Below, one piece after another: positions 36,870 to 38,447 of a stretch of 64,000 nt of DNA; position 1 is the stretch's first letter, and every line of letters begins with the position of its first letter. Under the pieces are notes generated by a model. That model did no database searches and had not been told where the DNA came from. It saw only the letters and a list, made by a program, of their open reading frames with translations. Position numbers and translations under genes: made by a program. Source of the stretch: Acidobacteriota bacterium (GTDB lineage Bacteria; Acidobacteriota; Thermoanaerobaculia; UBA5066; Gp7-AA6); NCBI GenBank assembly GCA_046725935.1, contig JBKOZO010000073.1, forward strand, positions 9,341 to 73,340, read 5' to 3'.

Positions 36870-38117
36870 TCAGGACCGGGCGCCGCGCTTGGCGGGTTTC
36901 TTGTCGGAGCGCGAAGTGCCTCCGCGCGGCCTCGGCCCGGCCGGAGCTTCCTCTCGGGGCAGAAGCTCGCGAACGACATCGGGCCCGATGGTCCCCCTCT
37001 CGCTCATCACGCAGGCTCGGTGGACGACGTTGCGCAGCTCGCGGACGTTGCCCGGCCAGTCATGGCGGGCGAGCAGCTCGATGGCCTTGGGGTCCCAGCC
37101 CGCAACCCCGGACCCTTCCTGTTCTTCGATGTGGCGCCGGAAGTGCTCGGCGAGCAGCGGAATGTCCTCGCGCCGGGAGGAGAGAGTCGGCAGCTCGATC
37201 GGGAAGACGTTGAGCCGGTAGTACAGGTCTTCCCGCAGCTTGCCCTCGCGGATGCCTTCCTGCGGGTCACGGTTCGTCGCAGACACCAGCCGGACGTCTA
37301 CGCGCACATCCTGCGAGCCTCCGACCCGGCGCACCGTCTTGGCCTCGAGGACCCGCAGGAGCTTGACCTGGAGCTCCGCGCCCATCTCCGTGATCTCGTC
37401 GAGGAACAGCGTGCCCCCGTTGGCCTCTTCGAAGTAGCCGATCCGGCGCTTGTCGGCGCCCGTAAAGGCTCCCCGTTCGTGGCCGAAGAGCTCGCTCTCG
37501 ATCAGCGTCGGCGAGATCGCGCCGCAGTTGAACGCCACGAACGGCATGGTGGAGCGCTTCGAGAGACGGTGGATCGTCCGGGCCACGACCTCCTTGCCGG
37601 TGCCGCTCTGGCCCGTGATCAGCACGGGAGCGTTCGACTTCGCCACTCGTCGGATGGTCTCGAAGATCTTGCGCATCGATTCGGACCGGCCGATCAGCTC
37701 TCCGAGCTTGCCCGTCTCCTGCAGCTCGTCGCGCAGCGACTCGACCTCGGACTGCAGGCCGCGGCGCGAGGCCAGGCGCTGGAACACGACCTCCAGCTGC
37801 GCCGGACGCAGGGGCTTGACCAGGTAGTCGGACACGCCGGCCCGCAGGGCCTCGACGGCGCTGTCGAGGGAGCCCTGGCCGGTGATGACGATGCCCTCGC
37901 GGGCCGGATCGGCCTCGCTCGCGGCGCGGAACACCTCGATGCCGTCTCCGTCGGGCAGATGGACGTCGACCACCAGCACTTCCGGATTGAACTCGTCCAC
38001 GGCGCGCGCCGCTTCTCCGGCCGTGCCCACCGACTTGGTTTCTCCGCCGAGATCGCGGATGGCCTGCTCCAGACCCTTTCGCGTGGCGACATCGTCTTCG
38101 ACGATGAGAACTCTCAT
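36870..38117 (-). CDS. Sigma-54-dependent response regulator (REC-AAA+) lacking a C-terminal DNA-binding HTH
   Basis: It has a receiver domain (VVDVHLPDGDG), Walker A GQSGTGKE, GAFTGA (ERGAFTGA) and WPGNVRELRN. It then ends in about 50 aa of Pro/Arg/Lys-rich tail with no Fis-type HTH. The pilR copy at 5516-6952 does have the HTH. Confidence 0.88.
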   Translation of the reverse strand: MRVLIVEDDVATRKGLEQAIRDLGGETKSVGTAGEAARAVDEFNPEVLVVDVHLPDGDGIEVFRAASEADPAREGIVITGQGSLDSAVEALRAGVSDYLVKPLRPAQLEVVFQRLASRRGLQSEVESLRDELQETGKLGELIGRSESMRKIFETIRRVAKSNAPVLITGQSGTGKEVVARTIHRLSKRSTMPFVAFNCGAISPTLIESELFGHERGAFTGADKRRIGYFEEANGGTLFLDEITEMGAELQVKLLRVLEAKTVRRVGGSQDVRVDVRLVSATNRDPQEGIREGKLREDLYYRLNVFPIELPTLSSRREDIPLLAEHFRRHIEEQEGSGVAGWDPKAIELLARHDWPGNVRELRNVVHRACVMSERGTIGPDVVRELLPREEAPAGPRPRGGTSRSDKKPAKRGARS

Positions 38118-38204
38118 CCCGGGGATCTCCGTTGAGGAACCTTCGGCCTTCATTCTCGGGATCGTCTATTTAACACGATGCACCCGGTTTTGGCCGGGGG
38201 GTTT

Positions 38205-38447
38205 TCAGCCGGCGCTCAAACCGCTTCCCAGCAACATTTCCCGGCCCCGTTCGAACAGCGAAAACGCCTTATCGAGCTCGCGGCGGGCGACTTCGAGCGG
38301 CTCGGCGGGGTCCGCCCCCTTCTTCGCCAGCCGGGAGGCCCGCTCGAGATGCAGGGCGACGGCGGACAGAGGTGTTGCGACGTCGTGAAAGAAACGGCGC
38401 AGATCGGCGGACGCGGCCGGCGAGCCCGCCTGAGAGTCGCTCGTCAT
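38205..38447 (-). CDS. 80-aa stand-alone DHp (HisKA-like) helical-hairpin protein with no ATPase domain
   Basis: It has SD AAGGAG, an H-box LRRFFHDVATPLSAV and a second helix. The gene ends 88 nt upstream of the activator gene. Confidence 0.55.
   Translation of the reverse strand: MTSDSQAGSPAASADLRRFFHDVATPLSAVALHLERASRLAKKGADPAEPLEVARRELDKAFSLFERGREMLLGSGLSAG

Follow-up and report, generated by a model that had tools for sequence, protein, structure and literature searches.

A kinase-derived stand-alone DHp protein paired with a DNA-binding-domain-less sigma-54 activator in Thermoanaerobaculia

We analyzed a stretch of 64,000 nucleotides (hereinafter the window) from an uncultured soil Acidobacteriota bacterium of the class Thermoanaerobaculia, covering positions 9,341 to 73,340 of contig JBKOZO010000073.1 in assembly GCA_046725935.1. 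Its minus strand carries two adjacent genes, the first coding for an 80-aa protein that consists of a HisKA-type dimerization and histidine phosphotransfer (DHp) hairpin alone (38205..38447, delineated from its open reading frame and translation), and the second for a 415-aa sigma-54 activator made of a receiver and an AAA+ domain with no DNA-binding domain (36870..38117). We show that these genes form a conserved two-gene operon of the Thermoanaerobaculia. Comparisons across this lineage further show the 80-aa protein to be the remnant of a sensor-less mini histidine kinase of ~215 aa, with a DHp followed by a catalytic and ATP-binding (CA) domain, from which the CA domain was cleanly deleted; they also show that the remaining hairpin has been kept by purifying selection in at least 37 species. 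The anatomy of the system and its evolutionary series are solid and unusual; its mechanism is inferred. The derivation from a kinase was absent from the original prediction made on this DNA and is a new result of the present work.

Anatomy and kinase ancestry of the DHp protein

The gene for the 80-aa protein has AAGGAG as its ribosome-binding site, and its product displays an H-box (FFHDVATPLSAV) with an intact H21-D22-x-x-T25 motif in the context FFH21D22VAT25PLS, the H21 codon lying at 38385-38387. AlphaFold2, run with an alignment, predicts a helical hairpin (38217..38420, minus strand) in which a helix spanning residues 10-42 is joined by a turn to a second helix spanning residues 48-77, with a mean predicted local distance difference test score of 86.7 and 96-99 in the core blocks. 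Pfam searches with the 80-aa protein recovered no HATPase_c domain and, at E<=1, no match to Hpt (PF01627). The sequence separating the two genes (38118..38204, minus strand) is too small for a catalytic domain, and a terminator scan found no terminator-like site on its minus strand. It measures 87 nt, correcting the value of 88 nt in the original prediction, whose description of a two-helix DHp hairpin with an H-box and no catalytic domain agrees with both Pfam and AlphaFold2. The protein is annotated as hypothetical in the public record. It has 57 short homologs of 69-137 aa, and the family is a narrow one, with 66 matches at E<=1e-3 in a search of 1.84 billion representative proteins.

A degenerate-pattern scan taking one genome per species retrieved 76 loci, all from metagenome-assembled genomes (MAGs) of Acidobacteriota/Thermoanaerobaculia, and 7 further loci came from metagenome contigs. 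A survey of the co-occurrence of the pair, as had been proposed with the original prediction, found the activator gene directly behind the DHp gene in all 81 loci with sufficient downstream sequence. Among the 76 species representatives, the gene upstream of the activator exists in a long form of ~215 aa combining the DHp with a HATPase_c domain (39 loci) and in a short form comprising the DHp only and ending directly past helix 2 (37 loci, including the window). The nearest relative of the window is the locus L008, whose DHp protein is 88% and whose activator is 95% identical. All 39 long forms match HisKA (E<=0.1, best 1.6e-6; the one displayed score of 23.5 bits is below the Pfam cut-off of 26.9) together with HATPase_c, and in the PDB they recover kinases such as ThkA, DivL and ZraS (8.7e-13). 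Over 58 aa, the window protein shares 64% identity with the HisKA domain at the N-terminus of a DHp-CA protein of 214 aa, and a profile-profile comparison of the short and long families with hhalign returned a probability of 99.9%. Furthermore, the short form of the locus L063 by itself attains 32.1 bits against HisKA.

The manner in which the CA domain was lost can be read from the spacing of the genes. Measured from where the DHp match ends to where that of the activator begins, the distance comes to about -27 to 126 nt in the short-form loci versus ~405-429 nt in those with a CA domain; because the activator starts so close behind the hairpin, the DNA of the catalytic domain has been physically deleted and not merely interrupted. 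A neighbor-joining tree of the activators separates a clade of long-form loci from a clade of short-form loci, L063 falling on the border between them; this points to one, possibly two, deletion events followed by a long diversification. The long form shows no variation at its N, G1-like, F and G2 positions and is therefore probably a true sensor-less autokinase. The same positions (the G1-like motif being N-P-G, where ThkA has N-S-G) leave the idea of a degenerate pseudo-CA domain in the long form without support, and it was rejected. At one locus (L083, 8001-9402) the DHp gene is cut short and the activator match is broken into three parts; this is probably a pseudogene or an assembly frameshift.

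Selection and conserved residues of the DHp protein

The ratio of non-synonymous to synonymous substitution rates (dN/dS) has a median of 0.20 over a 59-codon core in 541 short-form pairs, with the long-form DHp giving 0.15. Between the window and L008 the DHp gene has accumulated 2 non-synonymous and 17 synonymous changes (dN/dS 0.03). These values bear directly on the possibility that the 80-aa reading frame is a non-functional fragment of a decaying kinase gene, as its small size, its annotation as hypothetical, its score below the Pfam HisKA threshold and the degraded appearance of L083 might lead one to suppose. The frame is intact in 37 species representatives despite deep clade divergence, its domain boundary is clean and its ribosome-binding site good; taken with the substitution pattern, this makes decay very improbable and effectively refutes it. 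Preservation by selection in dozens of species means that the DHp stub has very probably retained a signaling role.

The conserved residues allow some inferences as to what that role might entail. Residues R17, F19, H21, D22, P26, L27, S28, L32, H33, E35, R39 and others are invariant in the short family (36 aligned members in the case of H21). Both H21 and T25 are present in every genome locus, and a few metagenomic members have G, A or V at T25 with the H and D kept. As for the HisKA motif H-E/D-x-x-T/N, only kinase activity requires its acidic residue and only phosphatase activity its T/N (Willett and Kirby, PMC3510030). Hence, the maintenance of D22 in a protein devoid of a CA domain suggests that the histidine is still phosphorylated from some source, and that of T25 suggests that dephosphorylation of the partner is still possible. 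Since it has no HATPase_c domain, the stub should be incapable of autophosphorylation by itself. The DHp positions H+7, H+11 and H+12, which we take to be specificity positions (equivalent to EnvZ T250/L254/A255), are invariant in both the short and long forms; together with the receiver residues described below, this suggests that the docking interface with the activator has been retained. Some remote relatives of similar size (P0087, P0119, P0107 and P0092) do not have the phospho-accepting histidine (e.g. FLSDLVTALNGVS).

The activator

The open reading frame of the activator extends over 36870-38153 (minus strand); we took the ATG at 38117 as its start, in agreement with the M[KR]VLIVEDD beginning of the orthologs and with the gene call in the public record. 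Pfam identifies a receiver domain in residues 3-109 (37791..38111; Response_reg, 2e-20), the sigma-54 interaction AAA+ domain in residues 141-308 (37194..37697; Sigma54_activat, PF00158, 6e-73) and the AAA+ lid with WPGNVRELRN in residues 314-389 (36951..37178; AAA_lid_14, 1.2e-23), all on the minus strand. The Walker A motif GQSGTGKE, the Walker B motif LFLDEI and GAFTGA are legible in the sequence and invariant across 69 orthologs, in keeping with membership of the sigma-54 bacterial enhancer-binding proteins (AAA+ clade 6). The receiver residues E7, D8, D9, the acceptor D51 and K101 are also invariant across the 69 orthologs, with T79 being nearly so. The intact receiver and AAA+ motifs of the original prediction were thus recovered by Pfam and in the sequence itself.

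The same is true of the absence of a Fis-type helix-turn-helix (HTH), which had been predicted along with a contrast to the PilR protein of the window. HTH_8 was not found by Pfam in the window activator or in any of the 69 complete orthologs, every one of which is composed of receiver, AAA+ and lid, and PF02954 is listed for none of the best 120 database homologs. PilR (5516-6952), which served as a positive control, does have HTH_8 (E=1.6e-8, residues 414-454). The only thing that might speak for an ordinary NtrC-type enhancer-binding protein with a C-terminal HTH hidden by a frameshift is the naming of many homologs as 'DNA-binding NtrC family' or 'Fis family' in the sources, and these are default names. 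No HTH was found in the two other frames downstream of the activator, where the promoter and gene of a DUF5670 protein follow within 38-105 nt, and all 69 independent assemblies end alike; such an artefact is accordingly refuted, with a negligible residual probability. In two MAGs (L019 and L021) the activator reading frame extends 50-140 residues further, probably on account of pseudogenization or assembly frameshifts. NCBIfam matches of the activator end at about position 385 of models of ~450 aa. The activator is not an ortholog of FlgR (NF049963), the score being 310 bits against a cut-off of 750, and all other NCBIfam equivalogs were likewise below their cut-offs.

The region beyond the AAA+ domain required a modification of the original prediction, which had envisaged a tail of ~50 aa. 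The basic character and the lack of an HTH were upheld; however, about half of this segment belongs to the AAA lid, which takes up the first ~25 of the ~53 residues past WPGNVREL. What remains in the place of the HTH is a low-complexity basic tail of 28 aa (REEAPAGPRPRGGTSRSDKKPAKRGARS; 36873..36956, minus strand). In 70 orthologs the tail has a median length of 27 aa, 36% K+R and a median net charge of +9, mostly ends in RKR or RKK, and is conserved by character rather than by sequence. Being strongly basic, of low complexity and conserved, it leaves room for a non-specific contact with DNA, by which the activator might possibly be tethered.

Sigma-54 promoters and the surrounding genes

A sigma-54 -24/-12 promoter (TGGCACGAAAATCGC; 36818..36832, minus strand) is situated 38 nt past the stop codon of the activator and 53 nt before the gene of a small membrane protein of the DUF5670 family (36616..36765, minus strand; Pfam DUF5670 1.7e-14, supported by synteny). 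This element (TGGCACGAgaTTCGC) is conserved with <=2 mismatches in 58/59 loci. Its start lies at a median distance of 15 nt from the activator stop in 32 short-form loci, too close for an upstream activator site to fit into the intergenic space. DUF5670 is thus the conserved downstream gene with a predicted sigma-54 dependence and a candidate direct target of the activator. In the long-form loci (L061 9869-11300 and others) about 1.5 kb of extra small genes lie between the activator and DUF5670, and the DUF5670 promoter conforms more closely to the consensus (TGGCAC-N5-TTGC, 31 nt from the ATG). The neighborhood of the operon was remodeled together with the loss of the catalytic domain.

A second sigma-54-like element (CGGCACGCTTCTTGA; 39512..39526, minus strand) is found upstream of the gene of a 211-aa protein, p211 (38830-39465, minus strand), which is followed by a strong terminator. 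The p211 protein is secreted, and within it a unit of ~95 aa is duplicated in tandem. The element, of the form NGGCACG(C/G)TTCTTGAA, recurs in 19/23 loci at 44-56 nt before the start codon, and with TTGA in place of the canonical TTGC at -12 it is, to judge by its sequence, an atypical variant of the sigma-54 promoter.

Across the window TGGCAC-N5-TTGC is enriched, with 8 occurrences against 2.4 expected, a count reached in 0/100 shuffles. Looser -24/-12 matches on both strands between 23800 and 41450 precede stress-protection genes, among them those for DUF5670, a BON-domain protein (39601-40635, minus strand, with a strong terminator after it) and a receiver protein considered below. Such matches also stand in front of the genes for a low-affinity iron permease (PF04120; 24632-25171), DUF1328 (25395-25586), an Fe/Mn superoxide dismutase (SOD; 25695-26324), a 62-aa reading frame (26380-26568), Ku (31336-32157) and a GT4 glycosyltransferase (34319-35440). 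Trehalose-phosphatase and GH15/trehalase-like genes are interspersed among these motif-bearing genes. The cluster has the appearance of a general-stress or desiccation regulon under sigma-54 control, and the set of predicted promoters fits an enhancer-independent activator that serves many closely packed promoters of such a regulon. Two other minus-strand genes lie close to the operon, namely that of a 54-aa membrane protein (38578-38742) and, past DUF5670, that of a HAD hydrolase (35896-36615).

The DHp gene itself has no sigma-54 promoter at <=2 mismatches in its upstream region across 84 loci, bar one weak match at an off position. The candidate TGGCCGCATGCAAGC was considered as an autoregulatory promoter and rejected, for it overlaps the ribosome-binding site and has no match there in other loci. 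A scan for E. coli-type sigma-70 promoters found nothing. Elsewhere in the window, a perfect sigma-54 promoter (TGGCACCGGGATTGC; 10235-10249, plus strand) is found ~3 kb downstream of pilS-pilR and is possibly a PilR-dependent pilin promoter. There is also a selenocysteine tRNA at 56833-56927 (minus strand; Rfam RF01852, 67.6 bits).

Flanking kinases and possible phosphate sources

Divergently upstream of the DHp gene, 58 of the 74 loci with enough upstream sequence encode two hybrid kinases, which occur together in 50/50 cases. The first (~965-983 aa) has the architecture HAMP-GAF-HisKA-HATPase_c-REC-REC and the second (679 aa) REC-REC-HisKA-HATPase_c-REC, where REC denotes the receiver domain. 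No Hpt domain was detected in either at E<=0.01. These loci, to which the window does not belong, thereby combine a DHp protein and a response regulator with five neighboring receiver domains but no Hpt. By analogy, this layout suggests a multistep phosphorelay with the DHp protein in the role of Spo0B or ChpT, which would account for the catalytic domain having become dispensable.

The hybrid kinases are missing from this site in 12 loci scattered over the short-form clade (the window, L008 and L009 among them), where p211 and the gene for the 54-aa protein adjoin the operon instead. In the window, a 236-aa response regulator is encoded 2.2 kb away (40676-41386, minus strand), with a receiver (Pfam 6.7e-16) and a C-terminal domain of ~120 aa without a Pfam match. 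A sigma-54-like element (CGGTACAGATCTTGC; 41429-41443, minus strand) precedes its gene by 43 nt. In the lineage of the window, which has no hybrid kinases next to the operon, the DHp stub might have this protein as another partner. The protein is ruled out as a universal one, since it is confined to the window, L008 and L009.

Proposed mechanism and alternatives

We propose, giving it an even chance, that the stand-alone DHp stub serves as a phospho-histidine relay, a phosphatase or both, and that its partner is an enhancer-independent activator of the FlgR/CtcC type that governs a regulon of stress genes. The stub would dimerize as a four-helix bundle and still dock the receiver of the activator, with His21 continuing to act as a phospho-histidine station supplied with phosphoryl groups from elsewhere. 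The most plausible source would be back-transfer from the receivers of the flanking Hpt-less hybrid kinases, with other receivers or kinases stepping in in lineages like that of the window. From the stub, the phosphoryl group would pass to the activator at Asp51, and the H-D-x-x-T motif of the stub would also permit dephosphorylation of the activator, so that the stub would amount to a relay and phosphatase after the manner of Spo0B/ChpT in minimal form. Once phosphorylated, the activator would oligomerize and remodel the sigma-54 holoenzyme from solution, possibly aided by non-specific contacts of its basic tail with DNA. Its targets would be the -24/-12 promoters abutting the operon (DUF5670 and p211) and others in the surrounding stress-gene island.

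Several observations weigh against this proposal. Some concern the identity of the hairpin: the HisKA score of the window protein is 15.5 bits, under the Pfam cut-off of 26.9, and the short-family profile matched no kinase at E<=1 among PDB sequences, so that the kinase homology is established through the long-form relatives. Likewise, a Foldseek search of the PDB with the AlphaFold2 model returned only generic hairpins at E>1, with HK853 and KinB only among the noise; it is of no help since a DHp is indistinguishable from other helical hairpins. Others concern the supply of phosphate. The window and 11 other loci have no adjacent hybrid kinase; within the window, whole-window tblastn searches with both hybrid kinases and a Pfam search of the largest reading frames found no hybrid kinase or Hpt that could be the proposed phosphodonor, PilS being the sole histidine kinase recovered. 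The ancestor was probably an autokinase, which would make a relay function a secondary acquisition, and the conservation of T25 is equally well compatible with a pure phosphatase. An upstream activator site may also reside within the coding region of the activator. Lastly, all sequences are from MAGs and metagenomes of uncultured organisms.

Among the alternatives, the one that we take most seriously, unlikely as we consider it, is that the stub never carries phosphate and only dephosphorylates the activator receiver through H-D-x-x-T, thereby setting the off-rate, with the activator being phosphorylated by a non-adjacent kinase or acetyl phosphate. It would sit well with the lack of an adjacent kinase to feed a relay in the lineage of the window, and the isolated DHp fragment of EnvZ reportedly has phosphatase activity. 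Moreover, T25 (H+4), found in every genome locus, is required exclusively for the phosphatase activity of HisKA proteins (PMC3510030). Against it, the metagenomic members with G, A or V at this position keep the H and D, and such a role would deprive the flanking Hpt-less multi-receiver kinases of a partner for phosphotransfer. The histidine is not known to be strictly needed for HisKA phosphatase activity. It is nonetheless invariant in the short forms along with D22, and a D/E at H+1 is needed only for the chemistry of the kinase reaction (PMC3510030).

The same role of the acidic residue in autophosphorylation (PMC3510030) would suit a split kinase, in which the stub is the phospho-acceptor half and a CA domain is provided in trans by another protein, such as a hybrid kinase; those with an intact HATPase_c adjoin in 58/74 loci, and a split CheA (Hik36/Hik43) is documented (PMC7656254). 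Reconstituted EnvZ or NtrB domains offer a further parallel. We deem this arrangement quite improbable because the window and the loci examined revealed no gene for a free-standing CA domain, a CA domain ordinarily serves its own DHp, and the lineage of the window has no nearby kinase bar PilS. Of similarly low probability is a non-catalytic adaptor or anti-activator, with the hairpin binding the receiver or the receiver-AAA+ linker to control oligomerization without any phosphoryl chemistry. Its strict co-location with the activator (81/81) and the His-less remote relatives, which show that the scaffold can persist without the histidine, are consistent with such a function; however, pure binding would not require the conservation of His, Asp and Thr together with the phospho-acceptor residues of the receiver.

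Wider occurrence and significance

The usual carriers of phospho-histidine in two-component signaling are complete kinases, with a DHp and a CA domain, and Hpt proteins. To our knowledge, the few DHp-based relays, i.e. Spo0B, ChpT and PhyT, all retain a pseudo-catalytic domain. DNA-binding-domain-less receiver-AAA+ activators, DHp-derived phosphotransferases and in vitro DHp fragments are already known. Searches of full-text literature recovered no account of a natural stand-alone DHp-only protein maintained by selection and paired with a response regulator, the nearest being census categories of 'incomplete histidine kinase'. The loci presented here form a natural series from a complete mini-kinase, via a DHp-only stub beside hybrid kinases, to a DHp-only stub with no kinase nearby. 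As the response-regulator partner and the flanking genes are constant over this series, it makes testable what a lone DHp is capable of, be it as relay, phosphatase or adaptor, and it also bears on how a kinase turns into a relay.

In its fullest form, the proposal is that a bare DHp of 80 residues is a natural self-sufficient phosphotransferase, a minimal Spo0B/ChpT, that wires Hpt-less hybrid kinases to an enhancer-independent activator of a general-stress/desiccation regulon comprising SOD, Ku, trehalose enzymes, BON, DUF1328 and DUF5670. We regard this complete picture as possible but doubtful; if true, sigma-54 in the Thermoanaerobaculia would do the job performed elsewhere by sigma-S, sigma-B or EcfG. 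More generally, a large environmental clade, abundant in soil metagenomes and routinely misannotated as 'DNA-binding NtrC/Fis family', joins the short list of DNA-binding-domain-less sigma-54 activators, and it links such an activator to conserved promoters before stress-protection genes in a poorly studied phylum.

H-box proteins of ~72 aa without a catalytic domain were also seen on two other metagenome contigs. One (L085, 1039-1257; RKFLHDIASP...) overlaps the start of a REC-PilZ gene, and the other (L086, 1155-1373; RKFIHDLASPL...) lies between the genes of a Trans_reg_C protein and a LysR protein, with a divergent receiver protein. The presence of H-box proteins of ~70 aa beside other response regulators suggests that the class of stand-alone DHp proteins may be wider. 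As H-box reading frames of 70-90 aa are annotated as hypothetical and fall below Pfam thresholds, such modules have probably been under-counted.

Comparison with known systems

The likeness of the activator to FlgR of Helicobacter/Campylobacter and CtcC of Chlamydia, proposed originally, holds at the level of architecture: these group-5 bacterial enhancer-binding proteins have a receiver and a sigma-54 AAA+ domain without a DNA-binding D domain and are controlled through phosphorylation by a two-component partner whose gene is adjacent (PMC7175178). However, FlgR and CtcC are served by the complete kinases FlgS and CtcB, whereas the partner here has no catalytic domain; the conserved basic tail of ~27 aa is a feature of the present family; and the predicted regulon is of a stress type rather than flagellar or developmental. 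FlgR of H. pylori activates transcription from solution.

Among the DHp-based phosphotransferases, Spo0B, ChpT (PMC3433190) and PhyT (PMC5898713) resemble the stub in being kinase-derived hairpins with a conserved histidine, which in their case shuttles phosphate between receivers without autophosphorylation. Unlike the bare 80-aa DHp, for which a relay function is proposed by analogy, they have retained a (pseudo-)CA domain and reach ~200 aa, and the stub has no significant sequence relationship to any of them. Closer in size are laboratory truncations: the EnvZ 'domain A' fragment from the work of Zhu in 2000 and the NtrB H-domain fragment from that of Kramer & Weiss in 1999 are said to dimerize, to dephosphorylate the cognate regulator and to be phosphorylatable in trans in vitro. 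Like the stub, they are HisKA hairpins of ~70 aa with H-E/D-x-x-T/N, and the partner of NtrB is also a sigma-54 activator; the stub, in contrast, is a natural gene under selection in dozens of species.

Split class-II kinases have their acceptor and ATP-binding functions on separate polypeptides, a further example being CheA3/CheA4 of Rhodobacter. In Synechocystis this is the case with Hik36/Hik43 (PMC7656254). Both pairs are of the CheA type, in which the acceptor is an Hpt (P1) domain and the second half can be identified; no gene for a separate CA domain turned up in the loci examined here. A further comparison is internal to the family: the sensor-less minimal kinases of the long form, with a ThkA-like CA domain, share the operon partner and flanking genes of the stub, which differs from them in having no HATPase_c.

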